Of a stretch of 64,000 nt of DNA, positions 2,518 through 49,326 are shown piece by piece. This DNA comes from Acidobacteriota bacterium. Its GTDB lineage: Bacteria; Acidobacteriota; Vicinamibacteria; Vicinamibacterales; UBA2999. Where the stretch lies: the NCBI GenBank assembly GCA_041178345.1, contig JBEGVQ010000109.1:11074-75073 (forward strand), written 5' to 3'. The notes beneath the pieces were generated by a model that saw only the letters and a program-made list of their open reading frames with translations, ran no database searches and had not been told where the DNA came from. The translations under genes and the position numbers were made by a program. Each line of letters starts with the position of its first letter. Within the stretch, counting starts at the first letter, position 1.

Positions 2518-3918
2518 TTAGTGGGCGACGACGATGTTGCGCCACTTGCCCTGCCGGAATCGCATGACCGTCAGCACGCAGCGGGTGAAGTGGCCCAGGA
2601 CGATCGCGAGCCAGATGTCGCCGGCCTGCAGCGGACGGGTCGCCTGGATCAGCGTGCACATGCCGATCGGCACCGCCACCTGCGAGGCCAGCGTGATGAA
2701 CAGCGGGCTGCGGGTGTCGCCGGTGCCCTGCAGGCCGCCGGTGTAGGTCAGCGCGAGCGTGATGAAGAAGCCCGACACGGCGAGGTACTGGAGCAGTTGC
2801 TGGCCAAGTGCCGCCACCGCCGGTTCGGTGGCGCCGAAGGCGCCGAGCAGGACCTGGGGAATCGTCACGAACAGGATCCCGACGAACGCGGCCACGGCCA
2901 GGCCGATCCGCGAGGCCGCGTGCACACCCAGCATGGCGCGCTCGGGGTGGCCGGCGCCGAGGTTCTGCCCGGCAATCGTCGCGGCGGCGCCCATCAGGCC
3001 CACCGAGGTCCACGTGATCATCGAAAACAGCTCGGTGTAGCCGATCGTGAATGCGGCCTGGGCCGCCGCGCTCTGCGGCAGCGAGCCGATGTAGCGCAGC
3101 ATCAACACGCCGGCGACGTTCATAGCAATGCCCTGCACGCCGGTGGGCAGCCCGAAACGAAACAGCGAGCGGATGATGGTCCAGTCGGGACGCCAGTCCA
3201 TGTGGCGCGACACCCGGAACACCAGCCGGCCCTTGAACAGCTGGTAGAGCGCAAACGCGCTGACCGAACTCGAGGCGATGGCGGTGCCGAGCGCGGAGCC
3301 GGCGGTGCCGAGCGCGGGGATCGGGCCGAGTCCCGGGATCAGGATCAGGTTGAAGATGACGTTCAACACCGTCATGGTCACGCCGAGCCGAAGCGGCGTC
3401 CTGGTGTCGCCGGCCGCGCGCAGCGCCGAGGTCAGCATGAAGAACGACAGCATGCCGAAGCTCAGGGCGAAGTTGATGCGGAGGAACGGCAACGCCAGCG
3501 CCCTGACCTCGCCCGAGGCGTTGACCATCTCCAGCAGGTACGGCGCCGCGAAGTACCCGACCGGCCCCATCACCGCGTACATGGCGATGGCCGTCAGCAG
3601 CGCCTGCTGGACGGTCTTGTTGACCCGGTCGACGTCGCCGGCACCGACGAAACGCGCCACCAGCACGGCCTGGCCGGTGAACAGCGAGGCAATAAAGACG
3701 ATCACGACCAGGAAGATCTGCCAGCTGACCCCGATGGCGGCGTTGCCGGCATAGCCAATCAGGTGGCCCACCAGGATGTGATCGACGACGCCCTGCAGGC
3801 CGGCGATCACGTTTTGGAGCATGGTCGGCCACGCCAGCTTCCAAACGGCGGGACCAATGGGGCCTTCGACGAGCGACCGATCGAACGGCGACTTCTTCTG
3901 CTGAATCGGGTCAGACAT
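2518..3918 (-). CDS. MATE family efflux transporter
   Basis: Polytopic membrane ORF with a typical MATE N-terminus ([35 protein letters not shown]). Preferred start is the ATG at 3918 (MSDPIQQKK), which overlaps the parE-like stop by 8 nt. The ORF is open up to 3975. Confidence 0.85.
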
Positions 3919-5815
3919 CGAGTTCGACGGCGTCCTCGGCCCGGTCCATGATGAAGCGAAACCGCGCCGACGCATCCTTGCCCATCAATTCGTTGATCAC
4001 ACGGTCCGTCACCAGCTGGTCGGCGACTTCGACCTTCAGCAGCCGCCGCGTCCGCGGGTTGAGCGTGGTTTCCCACAACACCTTCGGCATCATCTCGCCG
4101 AGGCCCTTGAAGCGGGTGATCTCGGGGTTGGCGCGCCCGGTCCTGGTCTTGAGGATCTGCTCCTTCTGCTGCTCGTCGAGGGCCCAGAAGGTTTCCTTGC
4201 CGATGTCGATGCGATAGAGCGGCGGCTGCGCCAGGTAGACGCGGCCCGCGGCCATCAGCTGCGGCAGGTGCCGGAAGATAAACGTCAGCAGCAATGTCGC
4301 GATGTGATGGCCATCGGAATCGGCGTCGGCCAGGATGATCACCTTGCCGTAGCGCATGCGGTTCAGGTCGAAGGTCTTGCCGACCCCGCACCCGAGAGCC
4401 GTCACCAGGTCGGCCAGCTCCTTGTTCTCGAGCACCTTGGCGGTGGACACGCCCTCGGTATTCAAGACCTTGCCGCGCAGCGGCAGGATTGCCTGGCGCG
4501 CGCGGTCGCGGCCCTGTTTGGCCGAACCGCCGGCCGAGTCGCCCTCGACCACGAACAACTCGCTCGTGATCGATCCGGGATTGGTGCAGTCGGCCAGCTT
4601 GCCCGGCAGGTTGACGCGACCGGCAGTGGGGCCCTTGCGCACCACTTCCGACGCGGCCGCCCGGCTCGCCTCGCGGGCCCGCGCCGACAGGATGATGCGC
4701 GCCACGATCGCCTCGGCGATCGACTGGTTGTTGTTCAGCCAGTGCTCGAGGCCGGGCCGCACCAGGCCGTCGACCGCCGACATCACCTCGGGGTTGTTCA
4801 GCCGGTCCTTGGTCTGGCCCTGGAACTGCGGTTCCTGGATGAACACCGACAGGATGCCGGTGAGGCCTTCGCGAATGTCCTCGGCGCTGAGCGTCACGCC
4901 CTTCGGCGACAGGTTGTGCGTCTCGATGTAGTTGCGGACGGCCTTGCCGAGGCCCGCGCGAAACCCGTTCTCGTGGGTGCCGCCCGACGCGGTGGGAATG
5001 CCGTTGACGTAGCTGCGCAGGCTCTCGTCGGTGGCCTCGGTCCACTGCAGGACCAGTTCCAGCTTGGTGGCGCCATCCTTCTCGAGCGTGAACGGCGCCT
5101 CGTGCACCGGCTTGGCGTGGCGCTCGCTGACGATTTTCTTGAGGTAGTCGACCAATCCTTCTGCGTGCTGGAAGACGTCCTTGTGGCCGGTGGTCTCGTC
5201 CTCGAACGTGACCTTGACGCCGCGATGCAGGTAGCTGGCGACTTCCAGCCGCTCGCGGATCAGCGCCGCCTCGAACTCGACCTTCGGGAAGATCTGCGGG
5301 TCGGGCCTGAAGAACACGGTGGTGCCGCTGCCGCGGGCCGGGCCGACCTTCTTCAGGCTGCCTTGCGGCTTGCCTTGCTTGAAGGTCATCTCGTACTGGT
5401 GGCCGTCGCGCCGCACTGTCGCCACCAACTCGCGCGACAGGGCGTTGACGACGCTCGCGCCGACGCCGTGCAGGCCGCCGGCGGTCTTGTAGTTGCCGGC
5501 CTCGAACTTGCCGCCGGCGTGGAGCACGGTGAAGATCACTTCGAGCGCGCTCTTCTTGGTCTTCGGATGCGCGTCGACCGGGATGCCGCGGCCATCGTCT
5601 TCGACGGTGATCGACGAGCCATCCTTGTGCAGCGTGACGCGGATGTTCGACGCATGACCGTTCATGGCCTCGTCGATCGAGTTGTCGAGCGTCTCCCAGA
5701 CGAGGTGGTGTAGTCCGGTGCTGCCGACGCCGCCGATGTACATGCCGGGGCGCTTGCGAACGGGCTCGAGCCCTTCGAGAACGGTAATGTCTTTTGCGGT
5801 GTAAGTGGTGGCCAC
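3911..5815 (-). CDS. parE: Type IIA DNA topoisomerase subunit B, topoisomerase IV ParE-like (GyrB not excluded)
   Basis: 634 aa. GHKL ATPase N-terminus ([39 protein letters not shown]) and Toprim/EGDSAGG motif ([40 protein letters not shown]). GTG start. The short length fits ParE or a short GyrB. Confidence 0.85.
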
Positions 5816-5825
5816 GCGAAGGACG

Positions 5826-5831
5826 ATTATA
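5826..5831 (-). promoter_or_regulatory. Perfect TATAAT (minus strand), 10 nt upstream of the parE-like GTG start
   Basis: Plus-strand attata at 5826-5831. It lies immediately downstream (minus sense) of the 5832-5861 hairpin. This implies a very short or absent 5' leader. Confidence 0.3.
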
Positions 5832-5861
5832 GAGGAACCTGAAGCGCGCTCCAGGTTCCTC
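5832..5861 (-). terminator. Hairpin after the NYN-domain gene (10-bp perfect stem GAGGAACCTG/CAGGTTCCTC, 10-nt loop)
   Basis: Read directly from the sequence. It lies 9 nt past the stop at 5870. No U-tract, so intrinsic-terminator function is inferred only. Confidence 0.45.
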
Positions 5862-5869
5862 GAGGTTTA

Positions 5870-7384
5870 CTACGCCTTCTTCTTGCGAGGCGCGGCTTTC
5901 TTCTTCTCGGCCTTCGCGGCTCGTGGAGGCAACCCTTTAGGGTTGCCTGACGCGGCCTCGGCCTTCTTCGCGCGTGGCGCCTTTCTGGCCTTGGCGGCGG
6001 TCTTCGGCGTCGCGGCGACGTTGCCGTCGACGTCAACCGGCTCCGCGATCGGCTCGGCCACCACCGGCGGCAGCGGCTCGACCAGCGGCGACGGCTCGAG
6101 CGACTCGAGCGGCGGCTGCGGGTTGTTCACGACGAGGCCCCACCCGTGCGGCACCGTCGCGCGCGCGGTGGCGCCGTTGGCGAACACGCGCAGGCCACCC
6201 TGGCGGTCGCGTTCGAGCCGCAGGATGCCGTCCTTCTGGCACGCGCGCATCAGGTCGGCGATCGAGCCGTAGCGGCGCTCGTCAAAGTCCGGTTGCGCGG
6301 CCTTCAGGAACTGCTTGAACTGCCGCGGATACATGGGCCAGCGCGGCGGCGTGGCCGCCTCGGCCAGGAGCCGGCGCACCAGAGCGACGCCGTCGCCAAG
6401 CGAGGCCGGCTCGGTCGGCGCCGGACGGGTTTCCTGCTCGTCGTCCAGCTCGGCGCCGCCGGGACCGGAGTCGGCCTGCTCCAGCAGTTCGCGCGCGGCG
6501 CGACGGCCGGCTTCACGCGACGCCGAGATCGACTCGCTGGGCAAATCCGGGACCAGCGTCGGAGCGGGCGCGGGCAGCGCGTCCACGGCACCCGGGTCGC
6601 CCTCGTTCAATTCCACCAGCGTGCTGCGGCCCTGGTGCTTCAGCGTGACAATGCCCTGCTTGGCCAGCTTGTCGGCAAAGTCGCGGAAGCTGCCGACGCC
6701 GTAGTCGCGTTCCGAGAACGACGAGTCGAGCTGCAGCAGCGTGCTCTTGAGCAGGCCCAGTTGCGGCGAGACCTCGCGGTCGGCCAGCACCTTGAGCGCG
6801 CGCTTGACGAGGGCCACCGACTGCTCGATCGGCTGCGTGCCGCTGCCCTGCTGGCGCGGCTGCCGCTCGCCGCCGCCGCTGCCGCGCTCGGGCCGCGGCT
6901 GGCTCGGGCGGCGATCGGGCACGACGTTCTCATAGGCAATGAACTCGGTGCAGTTCTTCTGCATCACCTGGCTGGTGAAGGCGCGGCCGCCGACCACGAA
7001 CACCTTGCGGTCGTACTGCTTCAGCTTCTCGACCAGCGTGATGAAGTCGCTGTCGCCGCCGACGATGACGAAGGCGTTGATATGGGAATGCGTGAACGCC
7101 ATTTCGAGGGCGTCGAGCGCGAGGTTGATGTCGGCGCCGTTCTTATCGCCGCCGGGCGTCGGCACGCGCTGCACCAGGCGCACGGCGTGCTGGGCCATGG
7201 CGCGGCCGTAGTCGCCGGAGCGCTTCCAGTCGCCGTACGCGACCTTGGTGATGATCTCACCGCGTTCCTTGATCGCCTCGAGCACGGCGCCGATATCGAA
7301 GGGCAGCCCAAGGGTCGTCTTCACGCCGATTTCGACGTTGTCGAAATCGATGAACACGGCAATCTTCAGTCTTTGATCTGACAT
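5870..7384 (-). CDS. NYN (LabA/PIN-like) domain protein with two OST-HTH/LOTUS-like domains and a Lys/Ala-rich basic tail
   Basis: N-terminus KIAVFIDFDNVEIG...DINLALDALEMAF...FVIVGGDSDFITLVEKLK matches the NYN/LabA pattern. Two helical blocks resemble OST-HTH (LLKSTLLQLDSSFSERDYGVGSFRDFADKLAKQGIV; FKQFLKAAQPDFDERRYGSIADLMRACQKDGIL). C-terminus KTAAKARKAPRAKKAEAASG...AAKAEKKKAAPRKKKA. Confidence 0.8.
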   Translation of the reverse strand: MSDQRLKIAVFIDFDNVEIGVKTTLGLPFDIGAVLEAIKERGEIITKVAYGDWKRSGDYGRAMAQHAVRLVQRVPTPGGDKNGADINLALDALEMAFTHSHINAFVIVGGDSDFITLVEKLKQYDRKVFVVGGRAFTSQVMQKNCTEFIAYENVVPDRRPSQPRPERGSGGGERQPRQQGSGTQPIEQSVALVKRALKVLADREVSPQLGLLKSTLLQLDSSFSERDYGVGSFRDFADKLAKQGIVTLKHQGRSTLVELNEGDPGAVDALPAPAPTLVPDLPSESISASREAGRRAARELLEQADSGPGGAELDDEQETRPAPTEPASLGDGVALVRRLLAEAATPPRWPMYPRQFKQFLKAAQPDFDERRYGSIADLMRACQKDGILRLERDRQGGLRVFANGATARATVPHGWGLVVNNPQPPLESLEPSPLVEPLPPVVAEPIAEPVDVDGNVAATPKTAAKARKAPRAKKAEAASGNPKGLPPRAAKAEKKKAAPRKKKA

Positions 7385-7564
7385 GTAGTTTCGTTACTTT
7401 CGAATTAGAGAAACCTTGGGGGCGTGGAGGCTTGGCGCGTAGCCGGAGTGGCTAAAGGTTGCGAGCCACCAAGTCTGCAGGCTTCCGAGGGGTCACCCAG
7501 GGAGGTGTCGCTACAGTATACCTGTCGGCACGGTGGTTGCAGTAAGGAATGGTGGAGTAGTCAA

Positions 7565-8188
7565 ATGAAGTCAATGTGCACACGAAACCGGACGCTTTTC
7601 GCCGCAATGCTCGCCCTGAGCGTGTGGATTGTGCCCGGCGCGCCGGTAATTTCGGCGGCGGCGGCGCAGAAGCCGGAAGTCCAGCGGCTTTTCCAGTCGG
7701 GCAGTTACGAGCAGGTGGTCGAAGCCGCGCGTGACGGTGACCCCGCGTCGACCTACCTGGCGGCCCAGGCGTTGCTCAAGCTCAACAACCTGGAAGGGGT
7801 GGCCGCCGAGTTCGCGCGCCTCAAGGGGAACGGTCCGGCTTGGAGCCTCGTCGGCGAGTCGGGCGAAGCGCTCGCCGCCAACGACGAGGGCCGCGCGGTC
7901 GAGCTGGCGCGCCGGGCCACGGAAACCGACGGCGAGAACCCGTTCGCGTTCTATCAACTCGGGCTGTCGGCGAGCAAAGGCCGCGACTGGGGCGGCGCCA
8001 CGGCGGCGTTCAACCGCGCTCTCGAGCTGAAGCCCGACCTGGCCTACGCGCATTACTACGCGGCCCTCGCGGCCCAACGCCAACGACAACTGCCGAAGGC
8101 GGCCGCGCACTTCGAGGCGTTCCTGCGCCTTGCGCCCGAAGCGCCCGAACGCCAGGCAGTGCAGGCGATCATGCGCAGCCTGAAGTAG
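7565..8188 (+). CDS. Secreted TPR-repeat protein
   Basis: ATG at 7565 follows GGTGGAG. Signal peptide MKSMCTRNRTLFAAMLALSVWIVPGAPVISAAAAQ. TPR-like helices (AFYQLGLSASKGRDWGGATAAFNRALELKPDLAYAHYYAALAA). The ORF track start at 7424 looks non-coding. Confidence 0.7.
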   Translation: MKSMCTRNRTLFAAMLALSVWIVPGAPVISAAAAQKPEVQRLFQSGSYEQVVEAARDGDPASTYLAAQALLKLNNLEGVAAEFARLKGNGPAWSLVGESGEALAANDEGRAVELARRATETDGENPFAFYQLGLSASKGRDWGGATAAFNRALELKPDLAYAHYYAALAAQRQRQLPKAAAHFEAFLRLAPEAPERQAVQAIMRSLK

Positions 8189-8241: not shown

Positions 8242-11200
8242 TTAGAAGATGTGCCCAATCCCGAAGTACCAACGGCCTCCGCTGAGGCTGTTGGGCTTCC
8301 GGGTCGAGGTGGTCGGGAATTCCGAGGCGGGAATACCGAAATCCACGCGCAGCATCCCGACCGGCGTCGAGAAGCGAAGTCCCCCGCCGTAGCCGATCTT
8401 CAGGGCGCTCCAGCTGAACGCCTGGTCGATCCCCAGCAGGTCTCCCGCATCGACAAAACCCACGCCGTTGATCCATCGATAGATCGGAAAGCGCACTTCC
8501 TGGTTCAGCACCAGCAGCGTTTCGCCGCCGAGCGGCAGGCCAAAGAAGTCGCGCGGACCCAGGCTGCCTTCGCCGTAGCCGCGCACGCTGGTCGCACCGC
8601 CGGCGTTGAAGCGGGCGCTCGGCAACAGCGGGTCGGGCCCAAACTTCTTGCCCCACTGGAGGCGCGATGCCAAGACGACGCGGCCGAGGGGTGCGAACGC
8701 GTACTGCTGCACCAGCAGCTTGCGATTGCTGACGTCGGAACCGAGCCACGACGCCGCATGATCGAGCGATGCCGACGAGAACGTGCCCCTGACCGGCGCC
8801 AGCGGATCATCGCGGCGGTCCCACAGCGCGGCGCTGCTGAGCGAGGCGAGGTTGCTGACAAAGTCGAGCGGCACCACGTCGTTGCCGGGCTCAGGGTCGT
8901 AGGTCCGCGATCGCTCGAAGCGGTAGCCGTAGACCACCTGCAGGCCGCGCGGCCGCCAGCGCTGGTCGGCGCTGAAGCCCTGGACGTCGTTGATCGCGAC
9001 GATCTCCTGCCCGCCATCGTCGCGAATGTGATCGCGCGAGTAGAACCCGTACAGACTGGACCGGGCGCGCCAGCCGAACAGCCGTGACGTCGCCAGGAAC
9101 AGCGTCGCGTCCTGGCGATCGTACTGATACATGCCGAACGCGCCGAAGGTGAGGGCGCGGCCGAACAGGTTCGGGTTCTTCAGCTCGGCCACCACGCCGG
9201 CATTGCGGGTGCTCGTGAACTCATCCAGCTCGAGTTCGCGGTTGCCTTCCAGCTGAAGGCCGTAGCGGAACGTCCACTGGGGGTACTCCTGCACCACCAC
9301 CACGGCCTTCACCGGCTGGACGCCATCGACCGCCTCGCCAACCGGCACGGCCTGGACGTCCACGAGCCGGAACACGTTGGTGTCGTACAGGCGCTTGCGC
9401 GCCACCGACCACTCGTCGAGATCCACCGGCTGGCCCAACTCGAAGCGCAGCGCGCCGGTGAGCACGTCGCCGCGCGTGATCTCGAGACCGCTCGTCTCGA
9501 CCTCCTGCAGCACCTGCTGCGGCCCCTCCGTGATCGCGAACGTGAGGCGGACGGTGTCGTCGCCCGCCACTTCCGGCAGCACTTCGACGTCGGCCGCATT
9601 GAAGCCGTCTCGCCGGTACTGCTCCTCCACCCGGACGCGGGCGGCGCTGACCTCGGTGGCCACGTACGGCGCGGGGGTCGGCATGACAGCCACCTTCTGG
9701 ATGGCCGCGAGGCGGCGCTCGGGCACGCCCTCGAACTGGACACTCGTCACTTGCGTCTGCGGACCTTCGACAATGGTGATGGGCAGGACGCCGGTGTCGC
9801 CGTCGATGGTCAACGGGCCGCCCGTCACCCGGGCCTTGAGATACCCGGCCTCGTGGTAGGCGCTGACCAGCAGTTCCTCAACCGGCGTGCGGTTGAGCCA
9901 CGCATCCACGTCCAGCCCCTGCGCGACGATCGCGTCGAGCAGCCGGTCCCCAGCGAGCGCCTGCTGACCGGTGACCCGAATCTCGCGGCTGCTGACCCGC
10001 ACGCCCTCGGTCACCTCGATCGTCAGCCGCTTGGTGTCGGGCAGCGACCGATCGACCGTGCCCACCACGACGCTGCCGAGCTCGTTGGTGCCGACCAGGT
10101 AGCGGCGAACCCGGTGCGTGAGATCGTCGATCAGGAACTGGTCGAACGCGTTGCGGTGCCAGGCCTCCTCGAGTTCAGCGGTGAGGCTCGCCGGCAGCGT
10201 CGTGCCAACGATGGCGAGTTCCGTGCGGGGGCCGCGATCGACCGTGTACTCGACCGTCACGGTGCCTGACCCCGGCACCTCGACGCGGCGGGTCCGTACG
10301 CGCGCCTCGAAATATCCCTGGGCCTTGAAGCGATCGCGCACCCGGTCGACATCGCGCTGCAGCACCAGAAAATCAAAATCGTCGCCGGGGCCGAGGGCGA
10401 TCTCGGCGCGCACCTCCCGCTCGATGGCGGGCTCGACGCCGGCAAACGCGATCGCCGCGACCGTGGGCTTCACGCGCAGTTCCGCGGGCTTGCGCCCGAC
10501 GCCGCCGCCAAACGTCACCTGGTGCCGAATGCCGAGGCTCGCCGTGTCGTCGTCACGCGACAACGCGCGAATCTCGATCGTCGGCGTGACGTAGTAGCTG
10601 ATGACGAAGGTGGTGTTGCCGCTCTCGCGCAAGTTCTGCGACACCGTGAACTCGACCTGCCGGCTCAACCGCTTCGACAGCGTCAAGCGCGTGGTCGGGT
10701 CGGTGCGGTCGTTGCCGACGAGCGACGGGTCGTCGCGGAAGTCGGGATCCTCGAAGTCGCCGCGTTCGACGCGGAAGGTGTCGAGGCCGATAGCTCGCCC
10801 GGTCACGCCCAGCAGGTCGGCCGACAGGAGCGTGAGCGCCGTGCCGGTATTGGTCTGGCCCAGTAGTTGTGCCGCCAGCTCGCCCGGCGTGCTCGACCCG
10901 TCTTCCGAGGTGAGGTCGATCGACGGTCGTTCCAGCGTGCCGGTCAAGGTGAGGGTCGCCGTGTCGCCACCGCCAAGCGGCGCCTCGGCGACGATATTGA
11001 ACTCGGGCCGGATGCGGCGGAGATCGGTGAACGAGATGTCGCCGCGGGTCAGGCGGAAAGTGCGGCCGGCCAGGAAGATCTCGCCACCTTCGCGCAACGT
11101 GATCCGTCCGTCCATGCCGGGCGCCGCCGCGGTGCCGGTGACGCGAACGTTGACGGCCGCGCCGAGCCGGCCATAGTTATTGTCGACGGTCAGGTCGTCG

Positions 11201-14200
11201 CTGGTCGTGACGTTCAGGTTCAGCCGGACGCGATCGAGGTACGGCTGTTGTGGCGTGGGCGAGACCGGCAGGGTGGCGCGGCGGGCCAGCGCGGTGAGGG
11301 TGATGGTGTCGGTATAGGCGCTTTGCAGCACCCGGATATCGCCGGTCACGATCGGCCCTTTCGGATCGGGGCGAAACGTGATCAGCGCGTCGACCTCGCT
11401 GCGGAGTCCGGCAATCAGCTCAATCGGCACGCCCTGGGCCTGGATGTTGACGGCGCCGTCGAGCGCGTCGACGCCCGATCCCTGCAGCGATCCGTCCAGG
11501 CTGAGCGTGCCACCATTGGCGAGACCGCGAATGCCGTCGAGCACCACCCGCTGGCCGTCGAGCAGGATCAAGCCGTTGAGGCCGGAGAGCACCAGGCGTG
11601 GTTCCGCGATCGCGACCTCCGCGTCCCGCAGGCCCACCTCGCCGTTGAACAGCGGGCGCGACACGGTGCCGCCAATCACGGTGTTGAGGTTGGCGTTGCC
11701 GTCGAACGCCAGCGTGCTGACGAAAGCCGACAGCACGCGCAGGTCAACCAGGCCCTGGACCGACAGGTCGAGCGGCGGGTCCTCGGCGGCAAAGCCCACT
11801 GACCCGTCAATCACCAGCGGGTTGTGCGCCACCGACCACGAGATATCGGCCACCGCCAGCGTGCCGCGCGCGAACTCGACCCGCGAGGGCCGCTGCTGCT
11901 CGACCGGGATGCCGGAGAACGTGAACTTGGCGGCATCGACGGTGAGCTCTCCGGCGACGGCGGTGAGTGCGAGGACCGGGACCTCGGCCCGGGCGGTAGC
12001 GGCGAAGCTGCCCACCACGCCGCCGCTGGCGACATCGCCGGAGAGCCGTGACACGGTCAGCGCCTCGCCCTGCAGCACGGCCTCGACGTTCAGGTTCGTG
12101 ACCGCTTGCGGGCCACCGCCCCAGTTGAAGGTGCCGGCCTTGAGCGACAGGGTCGCGAGCGTGCCGGCGCGGCTGCCGTTTGACCGGAGGTCCAGCGACA
12201 GCGGGCCCGAGCCGTCGAAGGTGACCGGCACGCCGACCGCCCGGCCCATGCGGATGGCGTCCTGGAACTCGCCGCTGAACTGTCCCTGGAACGCACCGTC
12301 GAGTTTCGTGTTCCACTCGCCCGCTGCCGTCAACCGGCCCGCGCCGATGCGGACATCGAGGTCCGTCAGCGTCACCTCGTCGCCGCGCCACACCACGCTG
12401 GCCGGCGCGTTCACGCTCACGGGCACGCCGCCAATGCCGGCGTCGAGTTCGGTGAGGTTGACAATGGCCAGGCGGTCGCGGGCGTCGGCGAGCCGGCCCG
12501 AGGCGGTCACGCTGCCGCTGGCAAAGCCGAGGATCTCGGACGAGACGGCGTCGAGAAACGGCGACAACCGCGCCAGCTCCAGGCGGTCGAGCCCGGCGGT
12601 CGCGCGATAGTCGTAGGGCGAGGCGGTGGCGATGTCGGCGGTGACGAGCGCGCCGACCGACGGCAAGCGGACGACGACCCGCGCCTGGTCGCCCATTAGA
12701 TCCGCGGTCAGGTCGCCGGCGCCGATCACCGTGCCGGCCTTGCCGCCGGTGAGCGAGAAGTCGACGCGGGCCTGGCCGCCTGGGCGCGCCGTGGTCCCGG
12801 TGCCGTCGAACTGCATCGAGAACATGGCTTGCGTGTCGTTGGGTGCCAGTACGCTCCCCTGCCAGGTCAGCCGATCGCCCTTGAGGTTGGCGGCATAGGC
12901 GCCCGTTTCCCAGGCGTAGCGCACGCGGCCGTCGAGGAAGCCGGCGCCCTGGCGCAGTTCGAGCGACGTGACGTCGATGTCGGCGGCCGTCACCATCGCC
13001 TTGGCAGTGGCGCTCGCGAGCGGCTGACCGGCCCAGGTCAGCGTCGTCCCGGTGATCGTGGTGTCGAGCGTGTAGTCGTCGAACGTGCCGCCCAGCAGGG
13101 CGGTGGCGCGCATCGGCCCGACGACCCGCCACGCCTCGGGCACGTCGGCCTGGAGTTCCTCGACGCGCGGCGCGTCGACGGTGAAACTCCCGCGCCACGT
13201 CTCGCCGGTGATGTCGGCAACGGCCTGGCCCCTGATCGTCGCCGTGCCGCGGCGGACGTCGATGCCCCTGATGTCGGCGCGGCGCGTGTCGGCGACCACG
13301 TGCGCGGCGGCTTGCACGCGCCCCAGCAGGGGCACCTCGACCGCGTCGCCGGTCACCTGCGTCTCGACCTGCGGCAGCTGGTAGGAACCTGCCAGGGTCA
13401 TGGGCACGTCAATCGCGCCATGAACGTCGGCGGCGATCTCGGGAACGGGAAAGCCCAGCGTCGCCAGGCCTTGCGCCGCCGTGGCCACGTCGCTCACCCG
13501 CGCATGCGCGGGGCCGGTCATGGTGGACAGCAACGCGGACTCGCGGTCGATGCGGCCCGCCATGCGGCCCTCGATCGCGGCACCCGGCAACGTGTGATTG
13601 TGATCGAAGCGGTAGTCGTCGCCGACGATCGTCGCCCGGAGGGTGCCGGACATGGGCACGTGGTTGCGCGTGGCGCGGCCGGTCGCGCGGTTGGTGATCT
13701 CGAAGCGGCGCGGCTCGCCGAACTCGAAGGTGCCGCTGCCGTCGAAGCCGGCGGCAATGGCCCGGGGGGTGACGTCGGCCAGGTCGAGCGCGGTTTGCGC
13801 GTCGAGCGCCCGCCACGACGCGGTGGCCTTGCTGATCGCGGTGCCGCCCCAGGGCACGTTGAAGTCGGCGCGAATCTCGCCACCCGAGCGCGGCGTGATG
13901 GCCAGCGCGGTGCCCGAGAACGATTCGAAGGTGACCAGCACGGGGCCCGACAGCGTGAGCTGGCGTGCGCGGCCGACGGCCAGCGTGGTGCTTGACGCGC
14001 GCAGCGTCGTGACGACGTCGCTGGGCGGTCCGGTGACGGTGCCGTCGATGGTGACCAGGCCGCCGACCGGCACGGGCGGCGGCGGGACCCAGGTCGTGGC
14101 GTGCTCGAGATCGACGGTGCCCTCGAGGGTGAGGGCGAGGCGTGGCGAATCCAGCACGCGGTGGATCGTGCCGCTCAAGAAGGCGTTCAGTTCCGGCGAG

Positions 14201-14865
14201 ACCAGCCGGGCGTCGGCCAACGTCAGGTCGGAACCATCGAAGGTCATGACGGTATCGAACGGGGCCATGGTCAAGATGCGCTCGCGCAGCCGCACGGCGA
14301 GCGGACCGCGCACGGCGAACGCGCCCTCGGCGCCGAGCGCGCCGCTCGTGAGCGCCGACTCGATCTGCGGAATCTTGACGCCCCAGTCGCGGACCATGTC
14401 GGCGTACTGCACGTCGAGGCCGCGCAGCGTCAGGCCGCGAAGGTCGAGGCGACGCGGTGTGTCCGGCGTGGGTTGTCCGGAACCCGGCGGCAAGTTGGTC
14501 ACGCCGTTCTCGTCGCGAACGATGTCGACAATGGCGTGGTCGACGCGCAGGTGATCGATGGCGAAGCGGCCGCGGAACACCATCCACGGCAGCGTGACCT
14601 CGACGCGCTGGGCGACCAGGAACGGCCGGTCGTCGTGCCCTTCGGCCGCGAGGCGCACGTCGGTGAGCGTAATGCGGCGGGTCAGCGCGTTGTAGCTCAG
14701 GTCGTTCGCGCGGAGCACCAGGTCATGGCGCGAGACGAAATCGCCGGCCCACGCCAGGGCGCGGGTGCGGGCCCATGGGGTGTGAATGAGCAGCAGGGCG
14801 GCCACAATGACCACGGCGGCGATTGCCGCCGGTACGACCAGCCCCCGCCGCACCCAAACTCTCAC
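8242..14865 (-). CDS. TamB/AsmA-like translocation-and-assembly protein fused to a POTRA + Omp85 (BamA/TamA family) outer-membrane beta-barrel
   Basis: Uninterrupted 2207-codon ORF with a GTG start. N-terminal anchor VVPAAIAAVVIVAALLLI. A long beta-rich repetitive region ends in a DUF490-like block (RLTLSKRLSRQVEFTVSQNL...VISYYVTPTIEIRALSRDDDTASLGIRHQVTFGG). POTRA-like repeats follow (VAAIAFAGVEP..., VSSREIRVTGQQAL..., VTSVQFEGVPERR..., LQEVETSGLEITRGDV...). The Omp85 barrel ends GGLRFSTPVGMLRVDFGIP...RWYFGIGHIF. Confidence 0.85.
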   Translation of the reverse strand: MRVWVRRGLVVPAAIAAVVIVAALLLIHTPWARTRALAWAGDFVSRHDLVLRANDLSYNALTRRITLTDVRLAAEGHDDRPFLVAQRVEVTLPWMVFRGRFAIDHLRVDHAIVDIVRDENGVTNLPPGSGQPTPDTPRRLDLRGLTLRGLDVQYADMVRDWGVKIPQIESALTSGALGAEGAFAVRGPLAVRLRERILTMAPFDTVMTFDGSDLTLADARLVSPELNAFLSGTIHRVLDSPRLALTLEGTVDLEHATTWVPPPPVPVGGLVTIDGTVTGPPSDVVTTLRASSTTLAVGRARQLTLSGPVLVTFESFSGTALAITPRSGGEIRADFNVPWGGTAISKATASWRALDAQTALDLADVTPRAIAAGFDGSGTFEFGEPRRFEITNRATGRATRNHVPMSGTLRATIVGDDYRFDHNHTLPGAAIEGRMAGRIDRESALLSTMTGPAHARVSDVATAAQGLATLGFPVPEIAADVHGAIDVPMTLAGSYQLPQVETQVTGDAVEVPLLGRVQAAAHVVADTRRADIRGIDVRRGTATIRGQAVADITGETWRGSFTVDAPRVEELQADVPEAWRVVGPMRATALLGGTFDDYTLDTTITGTTLTWAGQPLASATAKAMVTAADIDVTSLELRQGAGFLDGRVRYAWETGAYAANLKGDRLTWQGSVLAPNDTQAMFSMQFDGTGTTARPGGQARVDFSLTGGKAGTVIGAGDLTADLMGDQARVVVRLPSVGALVTADIATASPYDYRATAGLDRLELARLSPFLDAVSSEILGFASGSVTASGRLADARDRLAIVNLTELDAGIGGVPVSVNAPASVVWRGDEVTLTDLDVRIGAGRLTAAGEWNTKLDGAFQGQFSGEFQDAIRMGRAVGVPVTFDGSGPLSLDLRSNGSRAGTLATLSLKAGTFNWGGGPQAVTNLNVEAVLQGEALTVSRLSGDVASGGVVGSFAATARAEVPVLALTAVAGELTVDAAKFTFSGIPVEQQRPSRVEFARGTLAVADISWSVAHNPLVIDGSVGFAAEDPPLDLSVQGLVDLRVLSAFVSTLAFDGNANLNTVIGGTVSRPLFNGEVGLRDAEVAIAEPRLVLSGLNGLILLDGQRVVLDGIRGLANGGTLSLDGSLQGSGVDALDGAVNIQAQGVPIELIAGLRSEVDALITFRPDPKGPIVTGDIRVLQSAYTDTITLTALARRATLPVSPTPQQPYLDRVRLNLNVTTSDDLTVDNNYGRLGAAVNVRVTGTAAAPGMDGRITLREGGEIFLAGRTFRLTRGDISFTDLRRIRPEFNIVAEAPLGGGDTATLTLTGTLERPSIDLTSEDGSSTPGELAAQLLGQTNTGTALTLLSADLLGVTGRAIGLDTFRVERGDFEDPDFRDDPSLVGNDRTDPTTRLTLSKRLSRQVEFTVSQNLRESGNTTFVISYYVTPTIEIRALSRDDDTASLGIRHQVTFGGGVGRKPAELRVKPTVAAIAFAGVEPAIEREVRAEIALGPGDDFDFLVLQRDVDRVRDRFKAQGYFEARVRTRRVEVPGSGTVTVEYTVDRGPRTELAIVGTTLPASLTAELEEAWHRNAFDQFLIDDLTHRVRRYLVGTNELGSVVVGTVDRSLPDTKRLTIEVTEGVRVSSREIRVTGQQALAGDRLLDAIVAQGLDVDAWLNRTPVEELLVSAYHEAGYLKARVTGGPLTIDGDTGVLPITIVEGPQTQVTSVQFEGVPERRLAAIQKVAVMPTPAPYVATEVSAARVRVEEQYRRDGFNAADVEVLPEVAGDDTVRLTFAITEGPQQVLQEVETSGLEITRGDVLTGALRFELGQPVDLDEWSVARKRLYDTNVFRLVDVQAVPVGEAVDGVQPVKAVVVVQEYPQWTFRYGLQLEGNRELELDEFTSTRNAGVVAELKNPNLFGRALTFGAFGMYQYDRQDATLFLATSRLFGWRARSSLYGFYSRDHIRDDGGQEIVAINDVQGFSADQRWRPRGLQVVYGYRFERSRTYDPEPGNDVVPLDFVSNLASLSSAALWDRRDDPLAPVRGTFSSASLDHAASWLGSDVSNRKLLVQQYAFAPLGRVVLASRLQWGKKFGPDPLLPSARFNAGGATSVRGYGEGSLGPRDFFGLPLGGETLLVLNQEVRFPIYRWINGVGFVDAGDLLGIDQAFSWSALKIGYGGGLRFSTPVGMLRVDFGIPASEFPTTSTRKPNSLSGGRWYFGIGHIF
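8245..9288 (-). other. Omp85/surface-antigen beta-barrel portion of the fusion ORF (about residues 1861-2207)
   Basis: Alternating-hydrophobic strands, SVRGYGEGSLGP motif and C-terminal aromatic residue (IF). Confidence 0.7.
9289..10500 (-). other. POTRA-repeat portion of the fusion ORF (about residues 1456-1860)
   Basis: About 400 aa of repeated beta-alpha-alpha-beta-beta-like units between the DUF490-like block and the barrel. Boundaries approximate. Confidence 0.55.
10501..14865 (-). other. TamB/AsmA-like portion of the fusion ORF (about residues 1-1455)
   Basis: Boundary placed by counting residues back from the C-terminus to the end of the DUF490-like block. Approximate to about 20 codons. 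Confidence 0.6.
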
Positions 14866-14919: not shown

Positions 14920-15468
14920 ATGCGTATGAAGTCATGGCTCACGGTCGGCCTCGGCGCCGCCCTGAGTCTGGTGACGAGCGCGGCGGGCATGGCCCAGGCA
15001 CCAGCGGCATTGAAGGTTGGTGACATGGCCCCCGCGTTCTCGGCGCCCGGATCGGATGGTAAGACCCACACGCTGGCCGAGTCGAAAGGCAAGCAGGCGG
15101 TGGTACTCGCGTGGTTCCCGAAAGCCTTTACCGGTGGTTGAACGGCCGAATGCAAGTCGCTCCGTGAGAGCGGCGATCTCATCCGGCAGTACAACGTCGC
15201 GTATTACATGATCAGCACGGACACGATTGAGGACAACACCAAGTTCGCGCAGATGCACGAGGCGGACTATCCCATCCTCAGCGATGTGACCAAGCAGATT
15301 GGCACCAATTACGGCGTTCTCGGTGTCACGGGCATGGCGCGGCGGTGGACGTTCTACATCGACCCGGACGGCAAGATCCTCCACATCGACACCGCCGTGA
15401 AAGCGGCGTCGGCGGGTCCCGACATGGTGGCGAAACTCGGCGAACTGAAGATCGCAAAGCGTAAGTAG
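14920..15468 (+). CDS. Secreted Bcp/PrxQ-type peroxiredoxin with an in-frame TGA (15139-15141) at the peroxidatic-Cys position; candidate selenoprotein (alternatively a nonsense pseudogene)
   Basis: ATG at 14920 follows GGTGGAGGA. Signal peptide MRMKSWLTVGLGAALSLVTSAAGMAQA. The frame is continuous from 14920 to 15468 except for one TGA. Translation reads ...VVLAWFPKAFTGG[TGA]TAECKSLRES...YPILSDVTKQIGTNYGV...ARRWTFYIDPDGKI. So the universal Prx motif PxxxTxxC reads PKAFTGG-U with a resolving-type Cys 4 residues later. Confidence 0.6.
15145..15187 (+). promoter_or_regulatory. SECIS-like extended hairpin starting 4 nt after the in-frame TGA
   Basis: Upper stem GTCGCTC (15156-15162) pairs with GAGCGGC (15168-15174): 7 bp including one G-U, with loop CGUGA containing GU. 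Lower pairs are ATG (15150-15152) with CAT (15080+100 i.e. 15180-15182), and GCCG (15145-15148) with CGGC (15184-15187). Paired by eye only. Confidence 0.4.
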
Positions 15469-15713: not shown

Positions 15714-15770
15714 CCGCGGCGGATGCCCGGCTTCACTTCTATCAATCCATCGAACCCGAGGGAGTCAAAC

Positions 15771-18650
15771 ATGCGTCGAGTTGTCTTGTGCGCAGTAGTC
15801 CTCTGTGTGGCGTTATTCATCACGTCCCGGGAGGCCAGTGCGCAGGCCTCAATCGCGGGTGTGGTCCGCGACGGGTCGGGCGCCGTGCTGCCCGGGGTCA
15901 CCGTCGAGGCCTCGAGTCCGGCGTTGATCGAAAAAGCGCGCACCGTCGTCACCGACGGGTCCGGGCAGTACCGGATCGTGGATCTCAGCCCCGGGCGCTA
16001 TCAGGTCGTGTTTACCCTGGCCGGGTTCAAGACGGTGCGGCGCGAGGACGTGGTGCTCGAGGGTACCTTTTCGGCGCAAATTAACGTTGGACTCGAAGTT
16101 GGCGCGCTCGAAGAGTCGGTCACGGTCACCGGCGTGACGCCGACCGTTGACGTGACCAACAACCGCACCCAGTTCGTGGCCAACCGCGACATTCTCGATT
16201 CGATTCCCACGCCCATCCGCAACACGCCGGCCCGCGCGCTGCTGCTGCCGGGCACGGTGGTGACACCGAACGTCCTGGGCCAGTACAACATGAGCGTGCA
16301 CGGCTCGAACAACTCCGACATGGTGATTGCCATCGACGGCCTGCGCGTCAACAACCTGTGCGGCAGCGGCCAGTTCAGCGGCTTTTACATGAACGACGCG
16401 AGCGTTCAGGAAGTCACCTTCACGACCGGGGCCGAGTCGGCGGAAATGCAAAACGGCGGGTTGCGGATCAACAGCATCCCGAAGGATGGCGGCAACCAGT
16501 TCTCGGGCACGCTGTTCGCCTACGGCATGAACGGCGGCTTGCAGGCGGACAATCGCTCCGACGAGGTGAAGGCCGCCGGCGTCCCGCAGCCCAGCATTGC
16601 CTATACCTACCAGATCAACCCGTCGTTCGGCGGCCCGATCAAGCGCGACAAGCTGTGGTTCTACTTCACCTACAAGTACGAGGACAACAAGACCTACGTC
16701 GCCAGCTCCGCGTTCGCCGACGGCAGCAAGGCGTATCGCCAGGCCATGGGCAACTACAGCGCCGTCACGAGATTGACGTGGCAGGCCACGCAGAAGGACA
16801 AGATTCGCTTCTATCTCGACCGCCAGTACAACGGCGAGTTCTACAACGGCTTCAATACGTTACCGACCACGTCACCCGAAGCCTCGACCGACGCGTTCGG
16901 GTTGGGCTGGGTGCCGCAACTCAAGTGGACGCAGACCACCACCAACAAGTTGTTGCTCGAGGCCGGCATCTCCTACTACACCCAGGACTACGAACAGAAC
17001 TGCACGGACAGCGTGAAGCCCAGCGACCTGCCCCGCCTCGAACAGACCACCGGCCGGCTGACCGTAGCCTGCGGCAACACGATTCCGCCGTACACCAGCT
17101 GGACCAAGAGCTACAGCTCGGCGGCGTCGGCCAGCTACATCACCGGCTCGCACGCCTTCAAGACCGGCGTCACGGCGCAGTGGGGCACGAACGCGAGAAC
17201 GTTCTCGTCGAACGGCCAGATCAACACGCTGGTGTTCAACAACGGCCTGCTCGGCGCCCCCGCCAGCGCCACCAACCCCGTGCCCTGCGTGGCGTTGCCC
17301 TGTCCGATCGCCGTCGCCGTGAGCAACGGCGCGACCACGGCTCAGCAAGAGGTCAAGAGCGACCTGGGCTTCTTCATTCAGGACACCTGGACGATGGACC
17401 GGCTCACGCTCAACCTGGGCGGCCGCTTCGACCACTTCAATGCGATGGTGCCGGCGCAATCGGCAGCGGCAAGCACGTGGATCCAGGCGCGTAATTTCGC
17501 CGAGATCAAGGACGTCCCCAACTGGAACGACTGGTCACTCCGCATGGCCGCGGCCTACGACGTGTTCGGCAATGGCAAGACCGCGCTCAAGGTGAATGCG
17601 AGCAAGTACATCGCGTCAGCCGCGGCCGGCTACGCCGCCATCTTCAACGGCATGACCTACTCGACGCAAACGCGCGCGTGGTTCGACCTCGACGGCAACA
17701 AGTCGCTGTTCGACTCGGCCGGCAACATCCAGTTCGGCGAGGTGTTCGGCGGCACGTCGAATTTCGGCGGCATCACCAGCCGGCCCGATCCGGACCTGCT
17801 GCGGGGCTACAACTGGGAATACAACGCCTCGGTGCAGCACCAGCTGATCGATCGCCTGTCGATGACGGCCGGCGTCTACCGGCGCCAGTTCTACAACCTG
17901 GATGTCACCGACAACACCAACCTGGCGGTCACCGACTGGTCGCCGTTCTCGATCACCACCCCGACCGATCCGCGGTTGCCGGCCTCAGGCTCGGCCATCA
18001 CCATGCACTCGCTGAACCCGAACAAGGTCGGTGTCCCCACCGACAACCTGCGGACGTTCTCGGACATCAACACCTCGGTCTACAACGGGTTTGAGCTGAG
18101 CGCCAACGCGCGGTTTACCAAGCTGCTCCTGTTCGGCGGCATCACCACCGATCGGCGGGCCACGACCAGCTGCGACGAACGTGACAACCCGAACAGCGCG
18201 CGCTTCTGTGACGCCGTGCCGCCCTTCCGCACCACGTTCAAGATGTCGGCCGCGTACCAGCTGCCGTATGAGTTCCAGCTGAGCGGCTCGTTCCTGTCGC
18301 GGCCGGGGCCGAGCGTTGCCGCCAACTACACGGTGACCGCCGGTATCGCCGGCCGTCCGATCATCGGCTCGACCGCAGGTGCCACCACCATCGGGGTCAA
18401 CCTGGTTCAACCGAGCACCGTGTTCCTGGATACTTTCAACCAACTCGACCTGCGTCTCGGCCGCACCTTCAGGATCGGCAGCCGCACCCGCATCCAGGGC
18501 TTCGCCGACTTCTTCAACATCCTGAACGCGGGCACCGTGACCCGGGTCAACGAAACGTATGGCGCCAATCCGGCGACCAACGCGTGGATGCGGCCGACGG
18601 CCATCATGGACGCGCGCTACGTCCGTTTCGGCATGCAGATGTCGTTCTAG
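15771..18650 (+). CDS. TonB-dependent outer-membrane receptor with N-terminal carboxypeptidase-regulatory-like domain
   Basis: Signal peptide MRRVVLCAVVLCVALFITSREASAQ. CarboxypepD_reg pattern IAGVVRDGSGAVLPGVTVEA...TDGSGQYRIVDLSPGRYQVVFTLAGF. Plug-like region and a long beta-strand-rich barrel ending YVRFGMQMSF. Confidence 0.85.
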   Translation: MRRVVLCAVVLCVALFITSREASAQASIAGVVRDGSGAVLPGVTVEASSPALIEKARTVVTDGSGQYRIVDLSPGRYQVVFTLAGFKTVRREDVVLEGTFSAQINVGLEVGALEESVTVTGVTPTVDVTNNRTQFVANRDILDSIPTPIRNTPARALLLPGTVVTPNVLGQYNMSVHGSNNSDMVIAIDGLRVNNLCGSGQFSGFYMNDASVQEVTFTTGAESAEMQNGGLRINSIPKDGGNQFSGTLFAYGMNGGLQADNRSDEVKAAGVPQPSIAYTYQINPSFGGPIKRDKLWFYFTYKYEDNKTYVASSAFADGSKAYRQAMGNYSAVTRLTWQATQKDKIRFYLDRQYNGEFYNGFNTLPTTSPEASTDAFGLGWVPQLKWTQTTTNKLLLEAGISYYTQDYEQNCTDSVKPSDLPRLEQTTGRLTVACGNTIPPYTSWTKSYSSAASASYITGSHAFKTGVTAQWGTNARTFSSNGQINTLVFNNGLLGAPASATNPVPCVALPCPIAVAVSNGATTAQQEVKSDLGFFIQDTWTMDRLTLNLGGRFDHFNAMVPAQSAAASTWIQARNFAEIKDVPNWNDWSLRMAAAYDVFGNGKTALKVNASKYIASAAAGYAAIFNGMTYSTQTRAWFDLDGNKSLFDSAGNIQFGEVFGGTSNFGGITSRPDPDLLRGYNWEYNASVQHQLIDRLSMTAGVYRRQFYNLDVTDNTNLAVTDWSPFSITTPTDPRLPASGSAITMHSLNPNKVGVPTDNLRTFSDINTSVYNGFELSANARFTKLLLFGGITTDRRATTSCDERDNPNSARFCDAVPPFRTTFKMSAAYQLPYEFQLSGSFLSRPGPSVAANYTVTAGIAGRPIIGSTAGATTIGVNLVQPSTVFLDTFNQLDLRLGRTFRIGSRTRIQGFADFFNILNAGTVTRVNETYGANPATNAWMRPTAIMDARYVRFGMQMSF

Positions 18651-22852: not shown

Positions 22853-25270
<2,418 letters not shown>

Positions 25271-35600: not shown

Positions 35601-37334
35601 GTGAAGCAACTTCTTCTGGCTCTTCTGTGCGCGGGCCTGGTTTCGACGGACGCCCTCGCCCAGGGCGGCGGACAACTACCTCCGGGTGGCGGCCAGGGGC
35701 TCCTGCGGGGACAGGCGCGCGCGACACCCTTGCGCGACGATGCGCCCCGCGGCACCGCCGTCATTCGCGGACAAATCGTATCCGCCGACACCGGCGCGCC
35801 CATTCGCCGGGCGCAGGTGCGTATTTCGTCGGCCGAGGCTCGCGAAAGCCGGGTGGCAGCCACCGACGCGCAGGGCCGCTTCGAGGTCAAGGAGCTGCCC
35901 GCGGGCCGCTACACCATCAATGCCAGCAAGGCTGGCTTCGTCACGCTGCAGTATGGCCAGCGACGCCCATCCGAATCGGGCACACCGATCGAGCTGGGCA
36001 ATGGGCAAGCGCTGGACAAGCTGACCATCGCCTTGCCGCGCGGCAGCGTGCTTGGCGGCCGCATCACCGACGAGTTCGGGGAGCCGGTCGCCAATGCCAG
36101 TGTGATCGCGATGCGCTACAGCTATGCCGGCGGCGGCCGGCGCCTGACCGCCGCGCCGGGATCCAACTCGCGCGACACCACCGACGATCAGGGCCACTAC
36201 CGCCTCTTCGGCCTGCCACCCGGCGAGTACTTCGTGAGCGCGACGTTGCGCTCCGGTCCCGAGGCCGCCGACCCCACCGGTGAAGTCTCAGGCTATGCCG
36301 CCACGTACTTTCCCGGCACGGCGAACCTGAACGAGGCATCGCGCGTGACGCTGGCCGTGTCGCAAGAGAACACAACCGTGTCGTTCGGGCTGATTGCCAC
36401 CAGGCTGGTGCGGATCTCGGGCCAGGTGCTCACCTCGTCCGGCGAGCCCGCTGCGGGCGGCAGCGTGATCCTGATGCCGGGGGGCACCGCCGGGGGGCGC
36501 GGCATCCTGATGCAGCAGGGCGGCGGCGGCGGACGCATCGATCGCACCGGCGCCTTCACCATTGCGAACGTCGCGCCAGGACGGTACCAAGTGCAAGCGC
36601 GAAGCGGCGGCCGCGGCGGCGAAGGAGAAATGGCCAAGATGGATCTGGCGGTGGGCGTCGAGGACGTCTCCGGCGTGACCATGGTCACGGCGCCCGGCGC
36701 CATCGTTACTGGCCTGGTCGTGAGCGACACCGGCGAGCCGCTCGACTTTCCGGCCCAGCAACTGCAGGTCGCCGCCCGTGCCGCCAGTCCTGACGCACCC
36801 GGCCCCGGCGCGGGTGGCGGCGCGCGGGTCGGCACGAACTGGACCTTCGAACTGCGCGGCCTGACCGACGCCCGCCTGTTCCGCGTCAACGCACCGCAGG
36901 GTTGGACGCTGAAGTCGGTCGCCCTGAACGGCCAGGACATCACCGACGTGCCTACGGAACTGCCGCCGGGCCAGTCGGTGGCGGGCATGCAGATCGTGCT
37001 GACGAAAAAGACCACGACCCTGTCGGGCGTGGTGTCGGACTCGCGCGGCAAGCCGCTGCTCGACGCGACCGTCGTGGTGTTTCCCGCGAACGAGCAGTTG
37101 TGGACGTTCCAGTCACGGTTCATCAAGGCGGCGCGGCCCGATCAAGAGGGCACATACCGCGTGGCGGGCCTGCCCGCGTTGGAGGATTACCTGATCGTCG
37201 CCGTGCAGGGCCTTGAAGACGGCCAGGCCGGCGACCCCGAGTTCCTGGCCGCGGTGAAGGAGGCGGCCGCGACATTCACGCTGGCCGACGGTGAAGCCAA
37301 GGCCGTTGACGTTAAACTCCCCGCACCGAAATGA
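35601..37334 (+). CDS. Secreted protein with multiple carboxypeptidase-regulatory-like (CarboxypepD_reg) domains
   Basis: GTG start and signal peptide MKQLLLALLCAGLVSTDALAQ. Repeated motifs (IRGQIVSADTGAPIRRAQVRI...TDAQGRFEVKELPAGRYTINASKAGF; GGRITDEFGEPVANASV...DDQGHYRLFGLPPGEYFVSA; TGAFTIANVAPGRYQV). Confidence 0.8.
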   Translation: MKQLLLALLCAGLVSTDALAQGGGQLPPGGGQGLLRGQARATPLRDDAPRGTAVIRGQIVSADTGAPIRRAQVRISSAEARESRVAATDAQGRFEVKELPAGRYTINASKAGFVTLQYGQRRPSESGTPIELGNGQALDKLTIALPRGSVLGGRITDEFGEPVANASVIAMRYSYAGGGRRLTAAPGSNSRDTTDDQGHYRLFGLPPGEYFVSATLRSGPEAADPTGEVSGYAATYFPGTANLNEASRVTLAVSQENTTVSFGLIATRLVRISGQVLTSSGEPAAGGSVILMPGGTAGGRGILMQQGGGGGRIDRTGAFTIANVAPGRYQVQARSGGRGGEGEMAKMDLAVGVEDVSGVTMVTAPGAIVTGLVVSDTGEPLDFPAQQLQVAARAASPDAPGPGAGGGARVGTNWTFELRGLTDARLFRVNAPQGWTLKSVALNGQDITDVPTELPPGQSVAGMQIVLTKKTTTLSGVVSDSRGKPLLDATVVVFPANEQLWTFQSRFIKAARPDQEGTYRVAGLPALEDYLIVAVQGLEDGQAGDPEFLAAVKEAAATFTLADGEAKAVDVKLPAPK

Positions 37335-49258: not shown

Positions 49259-49288
49259 AACAGTCTCTGTTCCGACGTGGGGCGGCAC

Positions 49289-49310
49289 GGGCGGCACTAA
49301 AGTGCCGCCC
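49289..49310 (-). terminator. Hairpin GGGCGGCAC-TTTA-GTGCCGCCC (minus sense) after the 49327-50301 gene
   Basis: Perfect 9-bp stem read directly from the sequence. 18 of 21 nt are identical to the inner element of the 8191-8241 structure. Confidence 0.5.
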
Positions 49311-49326
49311 GTCCTGGCAATCCGCG

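Follow-up and report, generated by a model that had tools for sequence, protein, structure and literature searches.

A covalent fusion of a TamB-like protein and an Omp85 barrel conserved across Vicinamibacterales (Acidobacteriota)

Results

Organization of the fused gene and its product

A stretch of 64,000 bp from an Acidobacteriota bacterium of the order Vicinamibacterales (contig JBEGVQ010000109.1 of assembly GCA_041178345.1, positions 11,074 to 75,073; hereinafter, the window) was found to contain a single uninterrupted open reading frame (ORF) in which an AsmA/TamB-like part is continued, through a short linker, by POTRA domains and an Omp85 outer-membrane barrel. The features of this fused gene, in window coordinates and with the corresponding residues of its product, are as follows:

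8242..14865 (-): whole fused gene, an uninterrupted ORF of 2207 codons plus stop with a GTG start
14785..14841 (-): N-terminal hydrophobic signal-anchor helix, aa 9–27 (Kyte–Doolittle scan, AlphaFold2 helix)
10510..14865 (-): AsmA/TamB-like part, aa 1–1452, comprising the anchor, a second helix and ~70 beta strands (AlphaFold2, weak Pfam matches)
10504..11526 (-): TamB/DUF490 domain, aa 1114–1454, with the end ...RHxxxFGG (Pfam PF04357, family profile)
10462..10509 (-): interdomain linker, aa 1453–1468, GGGVGRKPAELRVKPT (family alignment)
9286..10461 (-): five POTRA domains, aa 1469–1860 (Pfam, BamA profile alignment, AlphaFold2, Foldseek)
8245..9285 (-): 16-stranded Omp85 barrel, aa 1861–2207, with SVRGY in loop 6 and the C-terminal ...GIGHIF (Pfam PF01103, AlphaFold2)

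A second GTG is located four codons in, at 14853, and corresponds to the 2203-aa form called by gene finders; the 99%-identical database cluster representative (P0001) is also 2203 aa long. The G+C content at third codon positions of the fused ORF was 0.90, which is typical for coding sequence in this 67% GC window (64–72% over 2-kb bins). The original prediction, made from the sequence alone, had described a 2207-codon ORF with a hydrophobic signal-anchor, about 1450 beta-rich residues ending in DUF490, a junction around nt 10500, about 400 aa of POTRA repeats and a barrel of roughly 350 aa. Each of these elements was recovered: the peptides VVPAAIAAVVIVAALLLI, ...IRHQVTFGG and ...RWYFGIGHIF were all found in the ORF translation, the junction was placed at aa 1453–1468, and the three Pfam profiles named for verification (PF04357, PF07244 and PF01103) all scored above their gathering thresholds, with AsmA-family matches sub-threshold.

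The anchor segment at aa 9–27 had a mean Kyte–Doolittle value of 3.1 over 19 aa and was the sole transmembrane (TM)-like window in the protein. A similar N-terminal segment was present in 89 of the 99 sequences of the family alignment, which comprised 98 family representatives and the window protein. The AlphaFold2 model of aa 1–1150, built from a diverse alignment, had a mean predicted local distance difference test (pLDDT) score of 88.4 and was nearly all beta, with a helix at aa 3–27, a second helix and then ~70 consecutive strands. The PF04357 match covered aa 1114–1439 (E-value = 3.9 × 10−26, 92.6 bits at a cut-off of 22.4) and positions 5–368 of the 381 positions of the profile, and the family profile aligned weakly to residues 1119–1198 of Escherichia coli TamB (9xdc_B). 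Because the Pfam match extends to position 368 of 381 and the family profile is collinear with this region of E. coli TamB, the DUF490 domain is complete. The TamB profile PF04357 was found in all 13 family members scanned. A phmmer search of the DUF490 region against PDB sequences gave no match, TamB being reached by family profiles alone. At the N-terminus, sub-threshold Pfam matches to DUF748 (32.4 bits, cut-off 50), AsmA (15.1 bits, cut-off 29.8) and YhdP were obtained; among the 13 members, they recurred in nine (DUF748), two (AsmA) and six (YhdP). The NCBIfam TamB equivalog NF047952 was also below threshold (36.1 bits vs. 825).

Across the 99 aligned sequences, the linker was 14–26 aa long (median 18) and always in frame. 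It separates the conserved DUF490 end ...RHxxxFGG from the start of POTRA1 (RVxxVxFxG), and its sequence is variable, with R, A, P and G abundant and a hydrophobic core lacking. Neither a signal peptide preceding the Omp85 half nor a conserved cleavage motif was found in the linker of these sequences, and the protein had no second TM-like segment. The Omp85 half therefore would not be exportable alone and would reach the periplasm solely within the whole chain. Independent translation of the Omp85 half was considered and rejected, given the lack of a signal peptide in the linker and the fragmentary nature of the short proteins; those starting near POTRA1 (P0139 and P0205) had no signal peptides and were fragments. 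The length of the linker requires POTRA1 to lie within roughly 50–90 Å of the DUF490 end.

The POTRA region (392 aa, five domains) gave a PF07244 match starting from aa 1467 (E-value = 5.5 × 10−21), and the barrel of ~347 aa gave a PF01103 match at aa 1899–2207 (E-value = 3.8 × 10−36). The family profile aligned aa 1468–1866 to residues 24–425 of BamA in 9pxj, covering all five POTRA domains, while the AlphaFold2 model of aa 1008–2207 contained five beta-alpha-alpha-beta-beta units and 16 barrel strands, with pLDDT of 85–90 in these regions. Foldseek matched this C-terminal model to full-length BamA (~830 columns, E-value = 1.7 × 10−34). The SVRGY motif is located at aa 2093–2097, with R2095 and G2096 invariant in the family, and Phe was the last residue in 98 of the 99 aligned sequences. 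Both halves of the protein are conserved, the DUF490 end and the barrel most strongly. The nearest NCBIfam model was that of BamA (TIGR03303), which remained below threshold (176.8 bits vs. 297.15) despite the five POTRA domains, whereas the TamA equivalog NF047950 scored 69.6 bits vs. 625, and TamA has three POTRA domains as opposed to five here. Thus, judging by profile scores, no curated equivalog of BamA, TamA or TamB claims the fused protein.

Distribution and authenticity of the fusion

A search of 5.8 billion proteins revealed more than 120 clusters with identities of 60–99%, lengths of 2186–2229 aa, full query coverage and the same Pfam set. The junction was gap-free in the alignment of the close clusters, for which the NCBI name was ‘TamB domain-containing protein [Vicinamibacterales bacterium]’. 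With the C-terminal 1200 aa as the query, HMMER was run exhaustively against 1.84 billion cluster representatives (clustered at 50% identity), and most of the best 150 were fused, with a single match extending over the junction. In these 150 representatives, the matched stretches were 28% to 75% identical, and the full-length proteins were 2047–2393 aa long. At least 2000 aa were present in 98 of them, which formed 46 groups at ~38% identity, and full-length identity to the window protein fell to ~23%. The shorter matches among the best 150 that were examined started mid-domain, had no signal peptide and were fragments. A profile search with a junction profile returned fragments only, and one with a diverse full-length profile mostly returned the close family again. 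The divergent clusters were labeled Luteitalea sp., Acidobacteriota bacterium or Bryobacteraceae bacterium, most others having no label; this suggested that the family may extend past Vicinamibacteria, with all labels obtained falling in a single phylum.

Relatives of the gene were encoded in at least 108 GTDB species genomes; the scan used two peptide patterns, and this number is a lower bound in which distant clades are under-sampled. The best 80 of these loci were nearly all labeled Vicinamibacterales or Acidobacteriota, with a few evidently mislabeled metagenome-assembled genomes (MAGs). In 54 of the 80 loci, 2100 or more codons could be read without a stop; another 15 were cut by contig ends and 11 had frame breaks. 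With respect to whether orthologues would be fused or encoded by adjacent genes, an alternative posed in the original prediction, the 54 intact frames were fused. All 11 frame-broken loci (L034, L039, L042, L057, L060, L065, L067, L071, L076, L078 and L080) belonged to long-read MFD MAGs and had match lengths not divisible by three; the breaks were found at scattered positions, none of them at the junction. They look like indel errors in a 6.6-kb gene, which would give split ‘TamB’ and ‘BamA’ gene calls. A further split call may be represented by proteins P0285 and P0300, which are encoded on the same JGI contig.

MAG JBBQSP01 contained two copies (L001 and L007), which were 88% and 73% identical to the window protein, respectively, and represent a mixed bin or a paralogue pair. 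The MAG records for loci L012, L015, L024, L030–L032, L034, L037, L044, L045, L054 and L061 are labeled Acidimicrobiia, ‘uncultured Bifidobacteriaceae’ or Cyanobacteriota; these non-acidobacterial labels are probably wrong, given the typical Vicinamibacterales gene and synteny.

The recurrence of this unbroken architecture in hundreds of independent assemblies excludes chance, and on this comparative evidence the fusion is genuine and under selection. It is the standard form of the gene across Vicinamibacterales, a large group of soil and freshwater Acidobacteriota.

Genomic neighborhood

The fused gene is stand-alone, and its neighborhood is kept across the 80 GTDB loci. A gyrA/parC-like gene lies upstream and is followed by the divergent gene for a peroxiredoxin, then by the fused gene, a convergent TPR gene, an NYN gene and a gyrB/parE-like gene. 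The gyrA/parC-like and gyrB/parE-like genes bound the conserved block (window 3911..7384 (-) and 22853..25270 (-), as well as locus flanks), and a protein with NYN and OST-HTH/LOTUS domains was encoded in 67 of the 80 loci. No second Omp85, tamA, bamA or TamB gene was found in the 64-kb window or in the 6-kb flanks of the 80 loci.

The TPR gene (window 7424..8188 (+)) encodes a small secreted protein and was convergent to the fused gene in 73 of the 80 loci. Its product, with the probable true start MKSMCTRNRTLF..., has a signal peptide and no lipobox, and it gave no specific family match. This protein could be an accessory periplasmic partner; a BamD-like role was considered.

The divergent gene adjoining the fused gene (window 14920..15468 (+)) encodes a secreted peroxiredoxin of the AhpC/TSA type with an in-frame TGA (15139..15141) at the position of the peroxidatic Cys (AWFPKAFTGG[TGA]TAEC). 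The TGA was present in all 64 copies from the window and the GTDB loci, and tblastn of the window peroxiredoxin against the loci gave 56–94% identity across the stop. A hairpin (GTCGCTC-CGTGA-GAGCGGC) begins 17 nt past the TGA and was identical in 63 of the 64 copies, while an adjacent Cys paralogue was also present in four loci. The gene is split in two by gene callers, and its best NCBIfam matches, PrxU included, were all under their cut-offs. Taken together, the sequence data indicate that this is very likely a conserved selenocysteine peroxiredoxin.

Other genes of the window encode large outer-membrane barrel proteins with N-terminal CarboxypepD_reg that resemble TonB-dependent receptors (15723..18650 (+) and 46610..49390 (-)), as well as a protein with a four-fold CarboxypepD_reg repeat (35601..37334 (+)). 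Proteins of this CarboxypepD_reg, TonB-dependent-receptor-like type are typical of Acidobacteriota.

Discussion

The fused protein holds every element that makes up the TAM (translocation and assembly module), in an order permitting assembly in cis, and we therefore consider it probable that the locus is a genuine gene, passed on vertically, whose product is a single-chain TAM. On the model of E. coli TamAB, export of the complete chain would take place via Sec, with the uncleaved N-terminal helix kept in the inner membrane and the C-terminal barrel inserted into the outer membrane in a manner dependent on the barrel assembly machinery (BAM). The DUF490 strands would then dock in cis on or in their own barrel and POTRA arm, giving a built-in hybrid barrel and a permanent 1:1 bridge from the inner to the outer membrane, whose hydrophobic groove would carry phospholipids outward; the chain may also help to fold some barrel proteins. 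The final strand of E. coli TamB pairs with beta-1 of TamA, and the C-terminal strands before it fold within the TamA barrel (PMC12800296); a stable TamA–TamB hybrid barrel has been proposed as the functional state (PMC12800296, PMC13119328). In common with this complex (cryo-EM structures 9xdc and 23sp), the fused protein has an AsmA-like part that is presumably anchored in the inner membrane, may form a beta-groove and ends in DUF490, together with a partner composed of POTRA domains and a 16-strand Omp85 barrel. However, the E. coli complex is formed by two chains from two genes, with three POTRA domains in TamA and 1259 aa in TamB, whereas the fused protein is one chain with five POTRA domains, a BamA-like barrel and a TamB part of about 1450 aa. 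TAM is, moreover, defined by two subunits encoded by adjacent genes, while the fused gene is a single ORF with no adjoining Omp85 or tamB gene. Thus, although the fused protein lies under the BamA, TamA and TamB equivalog thresholds and outside the two-subunit definition, it most likely works like TAM, as far as this analogy allows.

Related pairings are known from other lineages. TamL–TamB of Bacteroidota and TIC236–TOC75 of plastids are lineage-specific variants of the AsmA-like/Omp85 pairing; these are non-covalent, TamL being a lipoprotein and TIC236/TOC75 acting in protein import. One chain residing in both membranes is also known in VirB10, which crosses the outer membrane by helices and not by a beta barrel. 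In the Omp85 fusions of the PlpD type, a barrel carries a large N-terminal module in one chain, but this passenger is a secreted lipase and not an inner-membrane-anchored bridge. PlpD is mentioned in PMC4104836. Within the same phylum, Acidobacteria were reported to have, besides a canonical BamA, another paralogue of the BamA-like type whose gene adjoins tamB, the order being bamA–tamB (Heinz et al. 2015, PMC4494059). This paralogue resembles the Omp85 half of the fusion in being BamA-like and not TamA, in having five or more POTRA domains and in its inferred TamB partner. The genes are, however, separate there, whereas in the fusion the order is opposite (TamB is N-terminal), and neither a stop codon nor a second signal peptide lies between the halves. 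The separate arrangement of the bamA paralogue and tamB is probably the ancestral state of the fusion. According to work on the spirochaete Borreliella (PMC5582053, PMC11361582), the DUF490 of TamB binds a five-POTRA BamA and the gene order is tamB–bamA, which are features shared with the fusion, but the two are separate polypeptides and the BamA is sole and essential.

No description of a natural TamB–Omp85 fusion was found in full-text literature searches or in the main TAM and AsmA papers. Neither ‘fusion’ nor ‘fused’ occurs in Heinz et al. 2015 (PMC4494059), and a natural fusion is not mentioned in the 2023 review of AsmA-like proteins, the 2024 TAM review or the 2026 structure papers (PMC12800296, PMC13119328); the term ‘DUF490’ was not found in a text search of the 2014 survey of the Omp85 superfamily. 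The supposition in the original prediction that such a fusion had not been described therefore holds for the literature searched, but the architecture is no one-off: it is abundant in databases, catalogued as sequences under generic automatic names and not recognized as a family. The further proposal that the fusion would serve as a Rosetta-stone link is borne out insofar as the natural fusion is real; its value in this respect is limited, since the TamB–Omp85 partnership has already been solved structurally (PMC12800296, PMC13119328).

Several observations weigh against the single-chain TAM. Should DUF490 occupy the barrel in the manner seen in E. coli, 14 residues of linker may not suffice for an extended arm of five POTRA domains. 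The N-terminal Pfam matches to AsmA-related families fall under the gathering scores, and the top matches in a Foldseek search of PDB with the confident N-terminal model were the beta-belt of ApoB100 and LptD. Both are long lipid-binding beta-sheets, but TamB chains were not retrieved, and for this reason the fold match of the N-terminal region to TamB is unproven. In addition, the AlphaFold2 model of aa 1008–2207, based on a shallow alignment, was poor in DUF490 (pLDDT 66; predicted TM-score (pTM) 0.38).

Among the other explanations, the protein could be a polyprotein: after export of the whole chain, a periplasmic protease would cleave the exposed linker, yielding an ordinary two-subunit TamB/Omp85 complex. 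The unstructured linker, rich in R, A, P and G, would be accessible to proteases, and cleavage would lift the geometric constraint of the short tether. However, no conserved cleavage motif is present, and such processing has no known precedent among TAM systems. Moreover, the sequence of the linker varies freely while its length alone (14–26 aa) is constrained, which suggests that the tether is in use. We regard cleavage as unlikely.

Another explanation is that the Omp85 half is the sole housekeeping BamA of the organism, that is, an essential insertase held by a permanent tether to TamB and the inner membrane. Like BamA, this half carries five POTRA domains, TIGR03303 outscores the TamA equivalog (176.8 and 69.6 bits, respectively), both Foldseek and the PDB profile alignment match full-length BamA, and TamB works with the sole BamA in spirochaetes and Deinococcus (PMC4494059, PMC5582053). 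At the same time, the score is well under the BamA equivalog cut-off, Acidobacteria are reported to possess a canonical BamA in addition to the paralogue that partners TamB (Heinz et al. 2015, PMC4494059), and the barrel itself needs a pre-existing insertase. This explanation is quite improbable, and the same low probability is assigned to the fused protein being the only BamA-type insertase of these bacteria in uncleaved form. If this were true, the essential barrel-folding machine of Vicinamibacterales would be covalently tethered to the inner membrane via a lipid conduit, protein insertion and phospholipid supply would be coupled at fixed trans-envelope sites, and the question would arise of how the first barrel gets inserted.

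Slightly less probable still is that the barrel merely anchors the chain in the outer membrane and the DUF490 end has its working partner in trans, namely, another Omp85 (the canonical BamA), in which case the fusion would not report a functional partnership. With so short a linker, DUF490 may be hindered from inserting into its own barrel in cis, and TamB can bind the POTRA domains of BamA in Borreliella (PMC11361582). The barrel nevertheless keeps catalytic-type features that are needless for an anchor, namely, the invariant R-G of VRGY, five POTRA domains and high conservation. Finally, a merger of adjacent genes through a lost stop codon or frameshift has practically negligible probability: the 11 long-read MAG copies do have frame breaks, but these are never at the junction, 54 independent intact GTDB copies and hundreds in metagenomes are available, the linker is in frame and gap-free, and the Omp85 half has no signal peptide.

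Bridges of the TamB type and Omp85 barrels are central to outer-membrane biogenesis and still under debate, the debated points being lipid transport versus protein assembly, a stable versus a transient hybrid barrel, and subunit stoichiometry. The gain from the fusion is limited inasmuch as the TamA–TamB interaction already has structures. The fusion offers a single-chain object for structural work and complementation tests, and it argues that the partnership tolerates a permanent tether of 14–26 residues from the DUF490 end to POTRA1, which is a geometric constraint for any mechanism. The protein would be a rare polypeptide integrated in both membranes, by a helix at one end and by a beta barrel at the other. 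Being a covalent fusion long kept in an abundant soil and freshwater lineage, it would argue, from its conservation, for an obligate 1:1 partnership between the TamB-type bridge and its Omp85 barrel.

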